From: Prolixibacteraceae bacterium
GTDB lineage: Bacteria > Bacteroidota > Bacteroidia > Bacteroidales > Prolixibacteraceae
NCBI GenBank assembly: GCA_003506435.1
Contig: DOAQ01000043.1
Span: 18,737 to 82,736, forward strand
DNA: 64,000 bases
Direction: 5' to 3'
Of the stretch, positions 28,837 to 37,842 are shown in pieces (the first letter of the stretch is position 1; the number at the start of each line of letters is the position of its first letter). The notes under the pieces were generated by a model. The model was given only the letters and a program-made list of their open reading frames with translations. It had not been told where the DNA came from and searched no databases. The position numbers and the translations under genes are program-made.

Positions 28837-31338
28837 TTAATTCCGCTTTGCTTCCATGTAGTTCATTACGAACCGGATTTCAGAATAACTGTATTTTTCG
28901 CCAAGCATGTTACGGGCCTGGGAAGCGGGGCACAGTCCGTTTTTCCTGAAGAAATCGGTGATTGTTTCAATCTTTTCATCCGGAAGAAGGCCTTTCAGAG
29001 GGATTTCTCCCAGCCGTACGTAATGGGCCAGATGACCTTCAATGGTTGATGTCGCCATCATCCGTTCTTCAGCAATTTCAAAAATAGTTTTTCCGTTTTT
29101 GAACAGGTCAAGACTGATTTCTTTCGTGTCCATCGCTGCTTTTGCCGCTTCTTTTTCAGCCCCGAACGGAACTTCCATTCCTTTTGCGCGACGATAGGCA
29201 ATGGCCATTTCCAGTATCTCTTTACCAAACTGCTGCATTTTTTTACCGCCCATGCCTTTAATTTCTTTCAGTCCGGATGTTGTGGCAGGCACTTCCTGCG
29301 CAATTTCCAGCAAAGTGGTTTGCCTGATGATCCGTGCAATTTCCACACCCATCTGGTTCGCTTTTTTCAGGCGCCATTCTTTCAGTGTTTTAAAGAAATC
29401 GGGATGGATAGAGCTTAAAACTGCGGTTTCCTTGTTTTTTCCTTTTTGTCCGGATTGCGGCGCTTCAATATTGGCTTTTGCCCTGATTTCCATGTATCTT
29501 TTTACGGAGAACCCGTTTTTACATTCTTCCAGACATGCTTTTTTTATACCGGTTTCTTTCGTGAACCGCTCAATTGCAGCCGATAAAATTTTCCGGACTT
29601 CCCGGTTGTCGGTTTCGAAATCAAAATTTTCAATTGCATTATCAACAATAGTTACCAGTTTCTCAGAAAAATAAGTACTGGCTTTTTTTATCCGTTCCTG
29701 AAGCTGAGGATTGCCCTCTGCATCCATATTTTGATTCAAAAGATTGTTTAACTGAACCGAAAATTTATCGGAAACGGCAACTAATTCCTCTTTTATCGGA
29801 AGAATGAGGTTTTGCAGGCTTCCCGGTAAATTGCCAATCAGTTGGGACAGATGTTCGCTGCATAATTTCAGCAGGTATTGCGACATGCGCAGCGTTGGCT
29901 GAAAATCGAACAGTTCAGTGAGCAATTGTTGCTGGAAATCTTTTCGCGCCCGGTCGAGTTCCCGGCTTCCCGGTTGGGTACGTTCCACCTCGTCGGTAAA
30001 GCGGAGTACGGTTGAATCGCTCTTCACGCTTTGCAAAGCAATGGGCGAACTGAGTACCAGTCCTTCGAGGCTGCGGCAACGGCTCAGTGCAACATAAACC
30101 TGCCCATGTGCGAACGACAACCGTGCGTTGATGATGGCTTTGTCGAACGTCAGCCCCTGGCTTTTGTGAATGGTGATGGCCCATGCCAGTTTTAACGGAA
30201 ATTGCCGGAATGTGCCGATTACCTCTTCGTCGATCTCCTGCGTTACTTCATTCAGCGTGTACCGCGCATTTTGCCACTCTTCAGGCTCCACTTCAACAGC
30301 AAATGCATCGCCGGGGCAGGTCACTTCAACTGTTTTGTCGCCGATTGCTGTAATCTTCCCAATTTTCCCGTTGTAGTATCGTTTGTCGCCCGACGAATCG
30401 TTTTTTACAAACATCACCTGCGCGCCGGTTTTCAGCTTTAATTCGGCGTCGGTGGGGTACTGGTATTCCGGAAAATCGCCGGTTACTGTGGCCGTGAATG
30501 TATGAGGCCTGCTTTTCAATGCGCTGAGTTTTGCATCGTTAATTTCCTGCGACTGATAATTGTGAGTGGTCAGCGTGATATAGCCTTCTTTGTCGTCAGG
30601 ATTAAACCCCCGGATGTACCGTTGATTCAACTGCGACAAAGTTTCCTCGTCGATATTATTTTCGCGGACTTTATTCAGTAATTCGATGAATTTCAGGTCG
30701 CTTTGCCGAAATATTTGTGTCAGTTCAATGCCGACCCATTTTGAACGTTTCAGTGCGTGACTGCTGAAAAAGAAACAGGTTTCGTAGTAGTTTTTCAGTA
30801 AATCCCATTCATCGTCTTTCACAATGGGGGCGAGTTGTTGCAGATCGCCGATCATCAGAAGCTGAACCCCGCCAAAGGGTTTGTTCCGGTTCCGGAAACG
30901 GCGTAAAACCTCATCGATACCATCCAGAACATCGGCCCGCACCATGCTTATTTCGTCGATCACCAACAGGTCGAGGCTGCGCATAATGTTGATTTTTTCG
31001 CGGCTGAAACGTTTGATCCCGGCAGCTACATTGCCGTCGCCGGGAACCTGAACAGGCCGGGGCTGATCGGGATTTTGCGGTATCTGCGGCCCGAACGACA
31101 TCTGGAAAAACGAATGAATGGTCACCCCGCCTGCATTGATAGCCGCTACTCCTGTTGGTGCGACAACAATCATCCGTTTCGGCGATATTTTTCGCAGTTG
31201 GTGCAAAAAAGTTGTTTTCCCGGTTCCGGCTTTTCCGGTCAGAAAAATATGCTGGTCGGTATATTGCACAAAGTCGAAAGCCAGTTGCAACTGGTCGGTA
31301 GTTTGTAGTGTAGAAGGCTGGTTTTCTATTGAGTTCAT
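28837..31338 (-). CDS. PIF1/RecD-like SF1 helicase with a C-terminal HRDC and HTH-like region
   Basis: 833 aa. Walker A 'LTGKAGTGKTT', 'VVAPTGVAAIN', 'LLVIDEISMV', 'GDLQQLAP' and 'TIHKSQGLTFD'. An HRDC-like 'LKEWRLKKANQMGVEIARIIRQTTLLEIAQ...GMGGKKMQQFG' follows. Confidence 0.8.
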   Translation of the reverse strand: MNSIENQPSTLQTTDQLQLAFDFVQYTDQHIFLTGKAGTGKTTFLHQLRKISPKRMIVVAPTGVAAINAGGVTIHSFFQMSFGPQIPQNPDQPRPVQVPGDGNVAAGIKRFSREKINIMRSLDLLVIDEISMVRADVLDGIDEVLRRFRNRNKPFGGVQLLMIGDLQQLAPIVKDDEWDLLKNYYETCFFFSSHALKRSKWVGIELTQIFRQSDLKFIELLNKVRENNIDEETLSQLNQRYIRGFNPDDKEGYITLTTHNYQSQEINDAKLSALKSRPHTFTATVTGDFPEYQYPTDAELKLKTGAQVMFVKNDSSGDKRYYNGKIGKITAIGDKTVEVTCPGDAFAVEVEPEEWQNARYTLNEVTQEIDEEVIGTFRQFPLKLAWAITIHKSQGLTFDKAIINARLSFAHGQVYVALSRCRSLEGLVLSSPIALQSVKSDSTVLRFTDEVERTQPGSRELDRARKDFQQQLLTELFDFQPTLRMSQYLLKLCSEHLSQLIGNLPGSLQNLILPIKEELVAVSDKFSVQLNNLLNQNMDAEGNPQLQERIKKASTYFSEKLVTIVDNAIENFDFETDNREVRKILSAAIERFTKETGIKKACLEECKNGFSVKRYMEIRAKANIEAPQSGQKGKNKETAVLSSIHPDFFKTLKEWRLKKANQMGVEIARIIRQTTLLEIAQEVPATTSGLKEIKGMGGKKMQQFGKEILEMAIAYRRAKGMEVPFGAEKEAAKAAMDTKEISLDLFKNGKTIFEIAEERMMATSTIEGHLAHYVRLGEIPLKGLLPDEKIETITDFFRKNGLCPASQARNMLGEKYSYSEIRFVMNYMEAKRN

Positions 31339-32062: not shown

Positions 32063-32468
32063 TTATTGAGTTTTTAAAATCTTGCCAATTTTTTCTTCGA
32101 CAAGTTCTTTCATCTCAAGTGCAATATTTTTGTATTCGATTGTTTCTTCTGCCGATGGGACGTACATAATCTCCCGGATATCTTGAATCAACTCCAAAAT
32201 CACTTAATACTTTTGGGTCAATGGACATAAAATCAGGGTCAATATCTGCACATTCCGACAGCAAATATTCGATATTATGAGTCTTCTTGATTTCAATTCC
32301 ATTAGAAATGAGAAAAGCTTTTAAAAATTTCTCAACAGCTTGTTGGCAGTGAAAGCAGACTGAAGCATTTGCAATTATTTCAAATTCAGTTAATTTTTCG
32401 ATAACTAATAAATCCTCGTTCGCTTTGGTCAGCCATTGTTTGATGAAATTAACTGTTTCATTGTTCAT
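32063..32468 (-). pseudogene. HEPN-domain protein of a MNT/HEPN pair, apparently frameshifted near its 3' end
   Basis: The ORF 32115-32468 ends '...SRYPGDYVRPIGRRNNRIQKYCT*'. Shifting the frame by +1 at about nt 32162 reads 'YVPSAEETIEYKNIALEMKELVEEKIGKILKTQ*' with a stop at 32063-32065. That is a typical HEPN C-terminal helix. Confidence 0.6.
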
Positions 32469-32785
32469 ATTGCGACCCCTTCTTTCATTACTTGTCTAAG
32501 AATGTGTCCGGTAATTTCCTTTTTTATTCGAATCTCTTCTTCACTCTGAATCAATATATCAGCAGGGATTTTATATTTTGCCAATTCCTTCCTCAATTGA
32601 GATTTCAGGAATCTTTTTTTGCGGATGTCAATAGTATCTCTGGTAATTATAAGAAAGTCATAATCGCTTTCATTTGAATTGTCATTTCGCGCACGGGAGC
32701 CAAAAAGAAGCACTTTGCAATCAGGGAATAAGCTGATTGCAGAGTTTCGTATTATAGAAAGCGCTTCCTTGTTATTATTAACCAT
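32465..32785 (-). CDS. Nucleotidyltransferase-domain protein (MNT-type partner of HEPN)
   Basis: 106 aa. 'LFGSRARNDNSNESDYDFLII' carries the GSxxxG...DxD polbeta-NTase motif. Its stop overlaps the HEPN start by 4 nt (ATGA). Confidence 0.8.
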   Translation of the reverse strand: MVNNNKEALSIIRNSAISLFPDCKVLLFGSRARNDNSNESDYDFLIITRDTIDIRKKRFLKSQLRKELAKYKIPADILIQSEEEIRIKKEITGHILRQVMKEGVAI

Positions 32786-32909: not shown

Positions 32910-33330
32910 TTTAGTTGCAGTTGACAGTCACAGTTTTCAGTGAACAGCCGTGGGAGAGTTGCGAGTCATGAGTCATGAGTTTCGAGTATCCAAATTCTGC
33001 CTTCTGTTATCGTAGCTGTTGTCTTACTACTTACGACTAAATTGAGTTTCAGATTTTAATCTAACTTTACTATCTGGTAATTTTTATCCTATGTGTCCTA
33101 CTGTGTCTATTGTGGTTAATGAACAGCCGGATTAAACACAAAGACGCAAAGACGCAAAGGAAAAAATTTCTTCCATCAGCATCCTGTTTTCTTCCGTCAT
33201 TTCCGTTTAGCGTTCCTGTTTTCTTTCGCCATTCCTATTTTCCTTTTGTCATTCCTATCTTTCTTCCGTCATTCCGGTGCAGGCCGGAATCTCATCGCAC
33301 AGCGCCATACCCGAAATGGGTGAGGTGGTT
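32910..33330. repeat. Direct repeat, copy 2 (~421 bp, with an extra ~58 bp pyrimidine-rich insert)
   Basis: It aligns base-for-base with 31583-31945 (offset 1327 at the left end) apart from a few substitutions and an insert around 33190-33250. Confidence 0.9.
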
Positions 33331-33339
33331 ATCTCGTCA

Positions 33340-33890
33340 CAGACCAGAAATTGTGTACCCTTCGTTACCGCAAGCTCAAAGAAGGAGGAGAGGTGAGTTT
33401 CGACGAACGCATCCGAAAACTCAAAGAAGTTACCCAAGGCTGGCTCAATTACTTCCGAATGGCAAGTATTCATGGCAAACTGAAGGAACTGGACGGATGG
33501 CTTCGAAACCGGCTGAGGTACTGCATTTGGCATCACTGGAGGACCGACTGTTAAGAATTTGTCCGGTGGACAAATTTAAGGAGGGGCCAGGTTGCAGGGG
33601 AGGGAACCGAAAAAGGAAAAACCTGATTCAATTGGGAGTTGATCCGGAACATGCTTATCAATGGAGCAGAACCCGGATGGGTGGATGGGCAACGGCTCAA
33701 AGTCCGATTTTGGTTACTACCATTACCTTGGAACGTCTGCGTAAAAGAGGGTATGAGGCGTTGCTTACTTATTACGAGAAAATTGCCCCACATCTTAATG
33801 AACCGCTGTATACGAGAACCGTACGTACAGTGGTGTGAGAGGTGCTCCGGTGGGCTTAACCGCTCACCGGCCATCTACTCGATTATGGGC
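33340..33890 (+). mobile_element. 5'-truncated group II intron remnant (maturase X-domain/C-terminus fragments plus domain V/VI-like RNA)
   Basis: Frame a reads 'ERIRKLKEVTQGWLNYFRMASIHGKLKELDGWLRNRLRYCIWHHW', the GW.NYF maturase hallmark. Frame b reads 'KNLIQLGVDPEHAYQWSRTRMGGWATAQSPILVTTITLERLRKRGY'. A domain V-like hairpin CCGCTGTATACGAGAACCGTACGTACAGTGG sits at 33803-33833. No RT domain is present, and the ORF is frame-shifted and interrupted. Confidence 0.7.
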
Positions 33891-33898
33891 TGGCTTTA

Positions 33899-34306
33899 TT
33901 ATTTTTTGTCTATCAGGAACATGACTAAAATTGTGATTGCAATAAATATCCCATAAAAGGGAATTAGTGTTTTTGATAAAATCCCAGAAATCCATGTTCT
34001 TTTTCCCGAATTATAAGAACTTGCATTCATGTTATAGTCAATTGCATTTTCATTTTTTGCACTTACCTCGTTGTATAATTCTCTGTATTGTCTCTCTTGA
34101 GAAATATAAAAACCATCAAGAACCCAAAAAACAGGTATGGCAATATATGAAATCAATACATAATTTAGGTTGGAATCATTTGCAGCTAAAGCAAATAAGG
34201 CAGAAACTAAAGTAACAGCCCATCCCTTTAACAAGAATGAATTAGAGTTCATTCTTGTTATGACATTTTGAATAAACTCCAGGTGTTTTCTTTTATTTTC
34301 ATCCAT
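33899..34306 (-). CDS. Small multi-pass membrane protein, last gene of the TIR operon (candidate effector)
   Basis: 135 aa. It has an N-terminal amphipathic helix, then a tight TM hairpin ('WAVTLVSALFALAA' - NDSNLNY - 'VLISYIAIPVFWVLDGFYI'), a 'SQERQYRELYNEV' helix and a C-terminal TM ('LIPFYGIFIAITILVMFLI'). It starts 5 nt after the upstream gene. Confidence 0.6.
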   Translation of the reverse strand: MDENKRKHLEFIQNVITRMNSNSFLLKGWAVTLVSALFALAANDSNLNYVLISYIAIPVFWVLDGFYISQERQYRELYNEVSAKNENAIDYNMNASSYNSGKRTWISGILSKTLIPFYGIFIAITILVMFLIDKK

Positions 34307-34311
34307 ATTTT

Positions 34312-35115
34312 CTAATTGATTATTTCATTAATTGGAAATGTTATTTCATATAATTTATCTAATGCGTCTTCTGCTTTTGTAAATTTACCACTATTATACC
34401 ATTCAACTAGGTGTTCTGTATCTATATCCTTTAAATGCTTTGTGTTTGCATCATATTTGACTTTTAATCCTTTTTCTAACACTTCCAACTTCCCTTCACT
34501 AGAGAACGTTCTAGTTTCAGTAATTGTGCTACGTAGTCTTGCTGGTAAATTCATACGAACAGTTTCAGAAAAGGCAATCTCTGAATAAATCCAAGGTGAT
34601 TCTGTTTTGTCCTTATTTTCAAAGGATTGAATTGAATTTGGAGTATCGTAAAATATTAAACATTCAGTTTTGTCTATCATTGTATTCAAGGCTGTTGAAA
34701 GCATCATGTGAACATGACTTGTAGATACTAAAACTTTATTGTAATAATATATTTTATTTTTCTCATCCATCCAACTGTATTGATTATCCAAGATTTGGAT
34801 AAGGTCATTGCCATAACCCCAGACGCAGGAATCAATAAAGGATATAATATTAAATTTCTCATTTAACCAGCCAGCTAATGCAATTACTTCGTCTTCATCC
34901 TTATGTGAGTGTGAAATAAAAACATTAGCGTGTATTTCAGGAAACCATGAATTGACTATTTTACTTGCGTCTAACGATTTGTCACTTAAGAAAAACTCGT
35001 CAAGAGTTTTCTTTACGGTTCTTTTTTGTTGATTAAATATAGTTTGCCCTACATTTTTAAAATGACTAAAATTTTCATCAAAATCAACTTTACTCAATTT
35101 GTACCCTTTAAACAT
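34312..35115 (-). CDS. TIR-like domain protein (divergent, with insertions)
   Basis: 267 aa. 'NVFISHSHKDEDEVIALAGWL' looks like a TIR betaA-loop, followed by 'CLIFYDTPNS...SPWIYSEIAF', an SxWxxxE-type motif. Confidence 0.6.
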   Translation of the reverse strand: MFKGYKLSKVDFDENFSHFKNVGQTIFNQQKRTVKKTLDEFFLSDKSLDASKIVNSWFPEIHANVFISHSHKDEDEVIALAGWLNEKFNIISFIDSCVWGYGNDLIQILDNQYSWMDEKNKIYYYNKVLVSTSHVHMMLSTALNTMIDKTECLIFYDTPNSIQSFENKDKTESPWIYSEIAFSETVRMNLPARLRSTITETRTFSSEGKLEVLEKGLKVKYDANTKHLKDIDTEHLVEWYNSGKFTKAEDALDKLYEITFPINEIIN

Positions 35116-35136: not shown

Positions 35137-35706
35137 TTATGATAGTAGCCATTGTTCGAAAGAAATAGACTCTCCATCAGTTTTTTTTACATGAATATCA
35201 TTCAACGATAATGAATCCAGATTTTCGTTTTCAATCACCATTTCTGGATATAATTGAAGGTATTCATATCCAGACCAGTTTCCTGATTTGCTTTGAATAG
35301 GTAATATTGCTAGTCTGCTTTCCGATTTAAGTATGTCAGCAATTCCAATTTCCCAATTACACCATTTTGAACGTAATCCATGGTAAGTAGCTAGAAATAA
35401 GAAATGGTTACATTCCCGAATTTTATTTTTTATATTATCAGCGGTTATTTTATTCGTAGTTTCAGGAAGTGATTTATCCATCCAATCTACATATAGTTCT
35501 GCATCCAGTTTAGAAAATAATAAGCTTATTTTACTCACTATTGTTTTATCTAAATGGCTATGAGATGGAAATATAACTTTGCCGTTTGGTAAATCTTGTC
35601 CTTCTTTTCGTTTGCGCTTTACAAATTCTTGGATATCCTCTTTGCCACGGAATTTGGTTTCTTCCTTTAAAAATTGGTTTAAATTATTTTGGGATAGTCT
35701 GTCCAT
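35137..35706 (-). CDS. TIR-domain protein (paralog 2)
   Basis: 189 aa. 'VIFPSHSHLD', 'LYVDWMDKSLPETTNKITADNIKNKIRECNHFLFLAT' and 'SKWCNWEIG'. It is clearly paralogous to 35711-36262. Confidence 0.75.
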   Translation of the reverse strand: MDRLSQNNLNQFLKEETKFRGKEDIQEFVKRKRKEGQDLPNGKVIFPSHSHLDKTIVSKISLLFSKLDAELYVDWMDKSLPETTNKITADNIKNKIRECNHFLFLATYHGLRSKWCNWEIGIADILKSESRLAILPIQSKSGNWSGYEYLQLYPEMVIENENLDSLSLNDIHVKKTDGESISFEQWLLS

Positions 35707-35710
35707 TGTT

Positions 35711-36262
35711 TTAGTTTTTTAGCCATTCTGCGAGAGAAATTTTTCTACCTTCAAATTCGACATAATACGTTCCTGTTGTATAAGTGTAGGCAGAAGTTAT
35801 AATTGGATAAATTGCTAGATATTCACTTCCACTGAAGTTACCTCCCTCGGAATTGGTTATTGGCATAACTGCTATATCCTTGAAGTATTTTTGTGAGTCT
35901 CCATAGCCAAGTTCCCAGTTGCACCATTTTGACTGAATAGCTTGTTCCGTTGCAAGAAGAACAAATTTATCGCATTGCCTAATCTTTTCCTTTATTTTCT
36001 TTGCTGTTGTGCCATTAGTATTTTTAGGCATTTCAGAGTCTTGCCAATCTACATAAACACTAATACCCAACTTTTTGAAAAGTGCAATTGCTTGTTCTAT
36101 AATTTCTGTTTCATCGTGTTTGTGAGAAAGAAAAACCGAAACTTCAAAAGAGTATTTTTTCCTTTCTCTTGTTGTCTTAGCTTCTGAGAAAATTTTTATT
36201 GAATCAGTTATATTCTCACTTTTTGCTTTTGATAATAATTGTCTTGAGATTAGTTTTTCCAT
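35711..36262 (-). CDS. TIR-domain protein (paralog 1)
   Basis: 183 aa. 'VSVFLSHKHDE', 'VYVDWQDSEMPKNTNGTTAKKIKEKIRQCDKFVLLAT' and 'SKWCNWELG', the TIR SxWCxxEL motif. Confidence 0.75.
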   Translation of the reverse strand: MEKLISRQLLSKAKSENITDSIKIFSEAKTTRERKKYSFEVSVFLSHKHDETEIIEQAIALFKKLGISVYVDWQDSEMPKNTNGTTAKKIKEKIRQCDKFVLLATEQAIQSKWCNWELGYGDSQKYFKDIAVMPITNSEGGNFSGSEYLAIYPIITSAYTYTTGTYYVEFEGRKISLAEWLKN

Positions 36263-36571: not shown

Positions 36572-37324
36572 TTATTTGGTTACCGGTTCTTCCGGTGCAT
36601 CGTTGCCGTTGCTGGTTTTAGCCACCAGCCGGGCATACTTGCTGCGCAGTTCGTCCATCTGGTTAAACAGGTTGAGCAGCGTTTCAGTCGATACAAGATT
36701 AATGGTTTGTTCCACGGCCATGCAAAACTGTTCGTAGCTTTTTATGGTTGCCGGTTTCAGGCTGCTGGCCGAAGGGGCGTCGTTGGCCGCTTCCTGGGCA
36801 TTGCGTGTTTTGTAGATGGTGTCGAACTCAATATTCGATTCCTCAAGTCCGGCAAGCATGGCGGTAATGCCAATGGTCACAGCTTGTTGTTTCAGGCTAT
36901 CCGAAGCATTCAGCTTTGCAATCATTTCGGCAAAAAGGGCTGTTTCGGTGTTTAACGCGGTCTTGTCGGTTTTCCAGTACGGGTCAAAAAACAGTTTCAT
37001 GTTTTCGCCAGCCACCTTTTTTGCATTGTCGAGGCTGATGCAGGCAGTGGTAATAGTGTGTTTAATCTCTGCAAAACGCTGGTCGCGTTCTTTGTCCTTT
37101 TCGGCCAGCGCTTTGGTAAAGGCGCTTTTCGAAGTCTTGTTTAACTGGGCGCCCATGGCGGCATTGTCGGTTTCGAGTTGCGCGAGGGCCGCTTTGGGCA
37201 AATCGCCGATCGATTCCTTTACAGGCAGGGCATAATCGATGGTTGACTTGCTCAACGAATACAAATCGGCAACTTTAAGCTGCTTTAAATTAATCGAACA
37301 AAATTTAACTGTCTCCATAAACAA
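36572..37324 (-). CDS. Hypothetical alpha-helical protein (possibly DUF6261-like)
   Basis: 250 aa, Ala/Lys/Glu-rich and predicted all-helical. It has normal GC, unlike its neighbours. The family assignment is from memory only. Confidence 0.4.
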   Translation of the reverse strand: MFMETVKFCSINLKQLKVADLYSLSKSTIDYALPVKESIGDLPKAALAQLETDNAAMGAQLNKTSKSAFTKALAEKDKERDQRFAEIKHTITTACISLDNAKKVAGENMKLFFDPYWKTDKTALNTETALFAEMIAKLNASDSLKQQAVTIGITAMLAGLEESNIEFDTIYKTRNAQEAANDAPSASSLKPATIKSYEQFCMAVEQTINLVSTETLLNLFNQMDELRSKYARLVAKTSNGNDAPEEPVTK

Positions 37325-37506
37325 ATATTTAAAAGTTAGTAAATAGTCAGGAGCATTGTCGTGCGAAGGTTAGTGCCAATACATTTCCGGTTTTCTTCCT
37401 TTGGGGCCTCAAAGTCCCCGGGAAAAAGCAGAGTATTCCGGTTAATTACAGGTTTCCTATTTCGAGAATACCGATGAAAACACTCGTCGGCAGCCTTTTT
37501 TGATTT

Positions 37507-37842
37507 TGGGAAAAGGTCCAAATCAACCGTCGGGAAGCTTTTCCTTTTTGGGAAAACGTCCAAACTGATCGTCGGGAACCTTTTTCCTTTTGGGAAAACG
37601 TCCAAACTGATCGTCGGGAACCTTTTCCTTTTTGGGAAAACGTCCAATCCGATCATCGGGAAGCTTTTCCTTTTTGGGAAAACGTCCAATCCGATCATCG
37701 GGAACCTTTTCCTTTTTGGGAAAACGTCCAATCCGATCGTCGGGAACCTTTTTCCTTTTGGGAAAACGTCCAAATCAATCGTCGGGAAGCTTTTCCTTTT
37801 TAGGAAAATCGTCAAAAACAACCGGAGACAAGCTTTTCCCTT
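37507..37842. repeat. Tandem repeat, 8 units of exactly 42 bp
   Basis: Units begin at 37507, 37549, 37591, 37633, 37675, 37717, 37759 and 37801. The consensus is TGGGAAAACGTCCAAWYYGATCRTCGGGAASCTTTTCCTTTT. The last unit is degenerate, and degenerate flanks extend to ~37465 and ~37850. Confidence 0.9.

Follow-up and report, generated by a model that had tools for sequence, protein, structure and literature searches.

The window analysed here, a stretch of 64,000 nucleotides from contig DOAQ01000043.1 of the Prolixibacteraceae bacterium assembly GCA_003506435.1, contains an operon in which three genes for TIR-domain proteins are followed by a gene for a 135-residue membrane protein. The question raised by this locus is what the small membrane protein does beside the TIR proteins. 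The original prediction held that it is a membrane-disrupting executor of the SLATT/DUF4231 type, paired with TIR enzymes that generate a nucleotide signal, and offered a role as anchor or sensor as the alternative. The identity of the protein, its kinship to the SLATT families and its likely mode of action are considered here in turn.

Layout of the protein and its genomic setting

The gene is an uninterrupted reading frame of 135 codons, from ATG to stop (thsF in Table 1). A search of a database clustered at 90% identity returned 1360 homologues at E≤1e-3, most of those listed being 70-80% identical, while a profile search against 1.84 billion representatives of 50%-identity clusters returned 4837 clusters at E≤1e-3 and 2925 at E≤1e-10. 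Since homologues are so numerous, the reading frame represents a genuine gene rather than a chance ORF.

The encoded protein starts with an amphipathic N-terminal helix (residues 7-21, KHLEFIQNVITRMNS) that precedes a first membrane helix (residues 29-42, WAVTLVSALFALAA). A loop of seven residues (43-49, NDSNLNY) leads to a second membrane helix (residues 50-68, VLISYIAIPVFWVLDGFYI), which is followed by a charged helix (residues 69-81, SQERQYRELYNEV); beyond this point the chain is polar to approximately residue 105 and then enters a C-terminal hydrophobic segment. These elements correspond to the arrangement originally described, in which an N-terminal helix and a hairpin of two membrane helices are followed by a charged helix and, after a polar linker, by a third membrane helix, and all of the strings quoted for it are present in the translation. 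Kyte-Doolittle analysis in 19-residue windows revealed three hydropathy peaks above 1.6, at residues 24-42 (1.86), 50-68 (1.88) and 114-132 (2.67), with which the helices of an AF2 model agree. The numbers of Lys plus Arg residues, five in the N-terminal segment, none in the loop, five between residues 68 and 104 and two at the C-terminus, fit a predicted three-helix topology with the N-terminus inside and the C-terminus outside, a topology that draws on hydropathy, the positive-inside rule and the AF2 model.

The AF2 model, which is of the monomer and was built with 30 homologues as input, displays a mean pLDDT of 87.6 and a pTM of 0.73, and contains helices at residues 3-44, 47-83 and 114-134. 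In the first of these the amphipathic N-terminal helix is continuous with the first membrane helix, while in the second the membrane helix is continuous with the charged helix. Neither an enzymatic motif nor a Macro or other globular domain is evident from Pfam or from the model. The Foldseek comparison proposed with the original prediction, carried out with the AF2 model against PDB and BFVD, identified no significant structural relative in either database (no match at E≤0.001), the best matches being generic helical hairpins. Searches of Pfam with the window protein yielded only sub-threshold noise (DUF3784 and DUF3278), and NCBIfam yielded nothing.

The operon is read from the minus strand in the order thsB (183 aa), thsB (189 aa), thsB (267 aa) and thsF (135 aa), so that thsF is the last gene, and the successive intergenic gaps are 4, 21 and 5 nt. 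The 189- and 183-residue TIR proteins are ∼40% identical to each other, and the 267-residue ThsB shows just a weak match to Pfam TIR_2. Inspection of the sequences indicated that the glutamate of the TIR catalytic motif is kept in all three ThsB proteins (WCNWELG, WCNWEIG and SPWIYSEIA), the 189-residue protein retaining the WxxWE glutamate as WCNWEIG. The GC content of the operon is 29-33%, compared with 43-50% for its flanks. The same arrangement occurs in a Prolixibacteraceae MAG, GCA_003524645.1, where the TIR proteins are identical to those of the window and the 135-residue protein is 99% identical.

Several other features lie close to the operon (Table 1). On the opposite strand, and convergently abutting the 3′ end of thsF, is a segment that looks like a degraded group II intron remnant; ORFs near the one with the maturase-domain match are frameshifted, and Rfam at the gathering threshold returned nothing between positions 30000 and 39000, including no group II intron RNA. 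Downstream of the operon, overlapping genes for a nucleotidyltransferase and a HEPN protein make up a predicted MNT-HEPN module of the toxin-antitoxin type beside the Thoeris operon. Immediately upstream of the three thsB genes, and in the same orientation, is a DUF6261 gene. The near-identical MAG contig has this gene too, but ThsF homologues elsewhere lack it as a neighbour, and it is therefore probably not part of the Thoeris system. Upstream of the DUF6261 gene is a tandem repeat that gives rise to spurious repetitive ORFs on both strands, and a helicase gene is located near the island. A scan for sigma-70 promoters and terminators performed no better than on shuffled sequences, and Bacteroidota would not be expected to follow this consensus.

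Table 1. Position of the type V Thoeris genes and of neighbouring features in the window
Feature	Position	Strand	Basis
thsF, 135-aa effector with three membrane helices (probable type V Thoeris; PADLOC PDC-M50A)	33899..34306	-	ORF, hydropathy, AF2, PADLOC, homology
thsB long form, 267 aa, TIR-like	34312..35115	-	PADLOC ThsB E 4.5e-76; stop 5 nt ahead of thsF start
thsB short form, 189 aa, TIR	35137..35706	-	Pfam TIR_2 E 4.3e-07; PADLOC ThsB E 1.2e-43
thsB short form, 183 aa, TIR, first gene of operon	35711..36262	-	Pfam TIR_2 E 2.1e-10; PADLOC ThsB E 1.2e-55
Apparent group II intron remnant	33110..33956 (especially 33351..33554)	+	67-aa ORF matching the group II intron maturase domain GIIM, E 6.5e-14
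Predicted MNT-HEPN module	32115..32785	-	Nucleotidyltransferase (NTP_transf_2/Polbeta, 106 aa) and HEPN protein (117 aa)
DUF6261 gene	36572..37324	-	DUF6261 E 3e-25
Tandem repeat	37504..37817		42-bp unit, 7.5 copies, 90% matches
PIF1-family helicase gene, 833 aa	28837..31338	-	HRDC and HTH_40 (Pfam hits on the identical MAG gene)

Relationship to type V Thoeris

Type V Thoeris has been described as a system composed of ThsB and ThsF (Yirmiya et al., bioRxiv 10.64898/2025.12.03.692087). In that work ThsF is a protein with three predicted membrane helices that is labelled DUF2270 (PF10028) and is especially enriched in Bacteroidota. Two of the TIR proteins of the window are contained in Table S1 of the same paper: the TIR domain of the 183-residue protein is an exact match to IMG 2709405277 (cluster 2612357774), and the 267-residue TIR is an exact match to IMG 2709405279 (cluster 2734579397), both assigned to ‘DUF2270 - Type V'. 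The two IMG gene numbers are two apart, in agreement with the gene order of the window, and the 135-codon ORF is the sole membrane-protein gene in the window that adjoins the TIR genes listed in Table S1. In PADLOC-DB v2 the 135-residue protein matched the PDC-M50A model PDLC04686 over its full length (E 6.8e-56), with weaker matches to three other PDC-M50A models. PDC-M50A is a computational ‘defence candidate' label only, and a search of the literature found no paper that uses the name ‘PDC-M50'.

A link to a validated system that is independent of the DUF2270 label was made through a locus from the Bacillus cereus group (L056, GCA_900108905.1). The validated type V systems are those of B. 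thuringiensis DAR 81934, which defends B. subtilis and responds to 3'cADPR, and of Bacillus sp. 1NLA3E (bioRxiv 10.64898/2025.12.03.692087). At the B. cereus group locus the gene directly upstream of that for a 141-residue protein, P0407, encodes a product identical at 251 of 251 residues to the ThsB of B. thuringiensis DAR 81934, and P0407 is therefore taken to be the validated ThsF or an identical allele. The window protein displays 43% identity and 67% similarity to P0407 over 129 residues (E 2e-38). The TIR partners tell a similar story, as the 267-residue ThsB is 41% identical to the DAR 81934 ThsB over its full length (E 2e-65), while the 183-residue ThsB and the TIR domain of the 1NLA3E type V ThsB share 39% identity. 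A genome scan with the 1NLA3E TIR domain returned only relatives at 71% identity and not the 1NLA3E genome itself, and in Exiguobacterium and Thalassobacillus the genes for ThsBs 71% identical to the 1NLA3E protein are followed by genes for 135-residue proteins that are 46-48% identical to the window protein.

[quoted passage not shown] The originally proposed role of membrane executor paired with TIR signal generators is supported, in that the protein is a homologue of ThsF from an experimentally validated type V Thoeris system. Together, the four genes make up a complete type V Thoeris system within an island of low GC content. Like the validated systems, that of the window has a ThsF of the same length class (135 compared with 141 residues) and three-helix topology, and its ThsB partners come from both ThsB clusters of the validated systems. 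It differs from them in combining three thsB genes from two clusters with one thsF gene, whereas the validated systems are two-gene operons, and in deriving from a member of the Bacteroidota (Prolixibacteraceae-like), where it is known here from sequence. His8, which is near-invariant in the ThsF family, is replaced by Tyr in the B. thuringiensis protein. ThsC of type II Thoeris is likewise a membrane effector that is triggered by a TIR-made ADPR derivative; however, ThsC senses His-ADPR via a Macro domain, which the window ThsF lacks.

The association between ThsF and TIR proteins extends well beyond the window. In all of the 18 fetched loci that bear a ThsF homologue a TIR gene lies alongside it; these loci derive from Flavobacterium and other Bacteroidota, Methylococcales, plasmids of Klebsiella, Priestia and Terribacillus, a Streptomyces plasmid, Exiguobacterium, Thalassobacillus and Citricoccus. 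The adjacency is thus found in Bacteroidota, Bacillota, Pseudomonadota and Actinomycetota, and also in a prophage, while tblastn detected ThsF homologues on haloarchaeal plasmids. In the B. cereus and Priestia plasmid loci that were fetched via the B. thuringiensis ThsB (H1 and H2), no ThsF adjoins the TIR gene. The breadth of the association bears on the view that the 135-residue protein is a small membrane protein of some unrelated kind, such as a holin-like or housekeeping protein, whose gene neighbours the TIR genes by chance. Such a view accords with the lack of any Pfam or NCBIfam annotation and with the name ‘hypothetical protein' used by the sources, but TIR adjacency in 18/18 loci across phyla, the 5-nt gap that separates the gene from the preceding thsB and the match to PADLOC defence-candidate models render it extremely improbable.

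Across the loci ThsF is 72-76% identical, while the adjacent TIR proteins are 40-52% identical and the adjacent long ThsBs 40-46% identical to that of the window. This contrast is the pattern that would be expected of a constrained effector combined with diversifying sensors. Among 146 diverse members of the ThsF family the near-invariant residues are K5, H8, L9, Q13, R18, S23, F24, K27 and W29, together with F60, W61, L63, D64, L68, E71, R75 and L77. The N-terminal helix, the helix after the hairpin and the first membrane helix are highly conserved, while the outer loop, linker and third membrane helix show little conservation. In two proteins, P0168 and P0152, an N-terminal SLOG domain precedes a complete ThsF module (LD_cluster2 E 1.7e-15 in P0168), and these fusions indicate that the ThsF module serves as the output domain for a nucleotide sensor. 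In another protein, P0125, the ThsF module follows an 8xMP membrane domain.

Individual loci display further variation in organization. The Vibrio phage 10N.286.55.A5_PE002 (PQ189363.1, L055) carries between positions 1347 and 2635 a gene annotated as ThsB whose end is overlapped by a ThsF-like gene. This element, which is 14 kb, PM2-like (Vinavirales) and temperate, has the two genes right after its integrase gene, and the pair is a putative prophage-carried Thoeris pair. In a Klebsiella plasmid (NZ_AP021974.1, L007, 3270-5049) the thsF homologue, which lies by a long ThsB gene, is itself truncated at codon 89 by insertion of an IS3-family transposase. A Streptomyces plasmid (NZ_CP108986.1, L010, 2447-4902) encodes a ThsF homologue and a 510-residue TIR protein with a HIT-domain gene between them; as type XI Thoeris has a HIT hydrolase for its effector (bioRxiv 10.64898/2025.12.03.692087), this cluster may combine two effector types. 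At three loci (L049-L051) a ThsB/ThsF pair is followed by genes for DUF1599, a second ThsB_TIR protein and Nmad2, and thymidylate-synthase-like and HMUDK_hel genes adjoin, a context associated with nucleotide modification.

SLATT, DUF2270 and other membrane-protein families

The original prediction placed the 135-residue protein in the SLATT/DUF4231 family, which would make it a two-helix effector homologous to the SLATT effectors of CBASS and type VII Thoeris and would imply SLATT-type oligomerisation. The proposal has some attractions. The succession of helix, membrane hairpin and helix is superficially similar in the two groups; SLATT effectors do partner TIR proteins in type VII Thoeris; and the three TIR genes of its operon associate the protein with a generator of nucleotide signals, although this last feature is common to many unrelated effector families. 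At the level of sequence, however, neither the window protein nor its 145 relatives matched Pfam SLATT_1-6 or DUF4231 at E≤1, and validated ThsF is likewise without a match to these models. The search was informative, as a positive control, the 290-residue effector of type VII Thoeris, was recognized by SLATT_3 (3e-46), SLATT_1 (6e-40) and DUF4231 (4e-16). Metagenomic sequences closely related to a validated type VII Thoeris operon supplied a 34-sequence SLATT alignment covering SLATT_3, SLATT_1 and DUF4231, against which hhalign gave two profiles of the ThsF family probabilities of 0.3% and 0.4%. BLASTP revealed no similarity between the window protein and the type VII SLATT effector. In addition, the strongly hydrophobic third membrane helix (the C-terminal peak described above) is part of the conserved ThsF module, whereas the SLATT core has two membrane helices, and the published classification separates ThsF (type V) from the SLATT protein ThsH (type VII) (bioRxiv 10.64898/2025.12.03.692087). 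Membership of the SLATT families is thus very improbable; the assignment is refuted at the sequence and profile level, and the resemblance appears to be one of layout with no detectable homology.

The likeness in layout has a functional counterpart. ThsH and the SLATT proteins of CBASS are, similar to ThsF, small membrane effectors whose activating signal is nucleotide-derived and made by a neighbouring enzyme, and they share with it a membrane hairpin flanked by cytoplasmic helices and probable oligomerisation in the membrane. ThsH differs from ThsF in its length of 290 residues, its two SLATT modules, its response to the canonical cADPR signal and in being modelled as a filament rather than a ring.

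The label DUF2270, under which ThsF entered the literature, was also evaluated. Pfam describes DUF2270 (PF10028) and DUF3278 (PF11683) as predicted integral membrane proteins, and weak matches to both are scattered through the ThsF family. PF10028 was matched at E≤1 by 30 of the 146 members (best 1.4e-05) and at E≤1e-3 by only one; the corresponding numbers for DUF3278 are 53 of 146 (best 6.3e-07) and four. None of the 146 reached a Pfam gathering score. With hmmscan the window ThsF did not match PF10028 at E≤1, nor did validated ThsF at E≤10, and as validated ThsF itself is without a match, a match to PF10028 by hmmscan is not discriminating. In the fold search of BFVD the only named family, at a TM-score of ∼0.53, was represented by a DUF2270 protein, with a non-significant E-value of 2.9. 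The ‘DUF2270' label would therefore reflect at best a remote relationship, and the ThsF family is without a Pfam model of its own in the Pfam copy used.

A relation to 8xMP was considered and rejected: weak Pfam matches to 8xMP occur in nine of the 146 members and in validated ThsF, while hhalign against the 8xMP half of P0125 gave a probability of 0.2%. A literature search for ‘8xMP' returned irrelevant papers only.

Proposed mechanism and significance

The activity of ThsF may be viewed in the light of experiments on the validated systems. [quoted passage not shown] These observations are relevant to the proposal that the 135-residue protein anchors or scaffolds the TIR proteins at the membrane, or senses infection for them, with the TIRs themselves acting as NAD+-depleting effectors. 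That certain bacterial TIRs act by themselves as NADase effectors (bioRxiv 10.64898/2025.12.03.692087), and that the 135-residue protein has no enzymatic motif, can be cited in its favour. The proposal is nevertheless improbable, since in the validated systems a lone ThsB both senses and signals, and the signal is toxic only where the system is present. Furthermore, the SLOG-ThsF fusions put the module downstream of a ligand sensor, and the effector is far better conserved than the TIRs, the opposite of what would be expected of a protein that senses phage. The role of anchor or sensor, held out as the alternative in the original prediction, is accordingly unlikely, and ThsF is considered below as the effector.

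By analogy with its homologues, phage infection would lead at least one of the ThsB TIR proteins of the window to convert NAD+ to a cyclic ADP-ribose isomer, most probably 3'cADPR. ThsF would reside in the inner membrane as a ring-shaped homo-oligomer, possibly the heptamer modelled in the published work, in which AF3 arranges seven ThsF protomers as a channel-like ring with inter-protomer pockets that are positively charged (bioRxiv 10.64898/2025.12.03.692087). Binding of the signal in these pockets, on the cytoplasmic face, would induce a conformational change in ThsF, and the activated protein would compromise the membrane so that the cell arrests or dies before phage replication is complete, an abortive infection. 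Formation of a pore or channel by ThsF is a model that rests on the AF3 prediction and the toxicity data. The response is not uniform across the family with respect to the 3'cADPR ligand and its sufficiency, as the Bacillus sp. 1NLA3E system is not intoxicated by added 3'cADPR and a Vibrio cholerae type V system provides no defence in E. coli (bioRxiv 10.64898/2025.12.03.692087).

Within ThsF, the two cytoplasmic helices next to the membrane likely form the pocket, namely the amphipathic helix at the N-terminus and the extension of the second membrane helix. It is placed there because nearly all of the near-invariant polar residues, K5, H8, Q13, R18, S23, K27, D64, E71, R72 and R75, are located in this region. 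The clustering of conserved basic residues on the cytoplasmic helices is compatible with the ring pockets modelled in the published work.

The system itself is already known. PADLOC included the family among its defence candidates in 2023, and its description, name and validation as the type V Thoeris effector came with a preprint of December 2025 (bioRxiv 10.64898/2025.12.03.692087). Little of the present identification is new, as the preprint that defines type V Thoeris already lists TIR genes of the window operon itself. The analysis settles the annotation of four genes of the window and corrects a SLATT assignment that was plausible but wrong. Its residual value lies in the description of a family without a Pfam model, in the conservation of ThsF far above that of the TIR proteins, and in the variants fused to SLOG domains.

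A more specific view of the family may be put forward tentatively, as one that is possible although somewhat short of an even prospect. ThsF may be a minimal, self-contained ligand-gated pore, in which adjacent 135-residue protomers form the pocket for cyclic ADPR with their two juxtamembrane helices only (K5, R18, K27, D64, E71, R72 and R75). Such a pore, without a fold relative in the PDB or a Pfam model, would be represented by ∼4,800 clusters at 50% identity and would occur also in fusion with SLOG domains, and in the window three divergent ThsB sensors would converge on one channel. If this is true, the convergence of three ThsB proteins on a single ThsF channel would widen the range of phages sensed.
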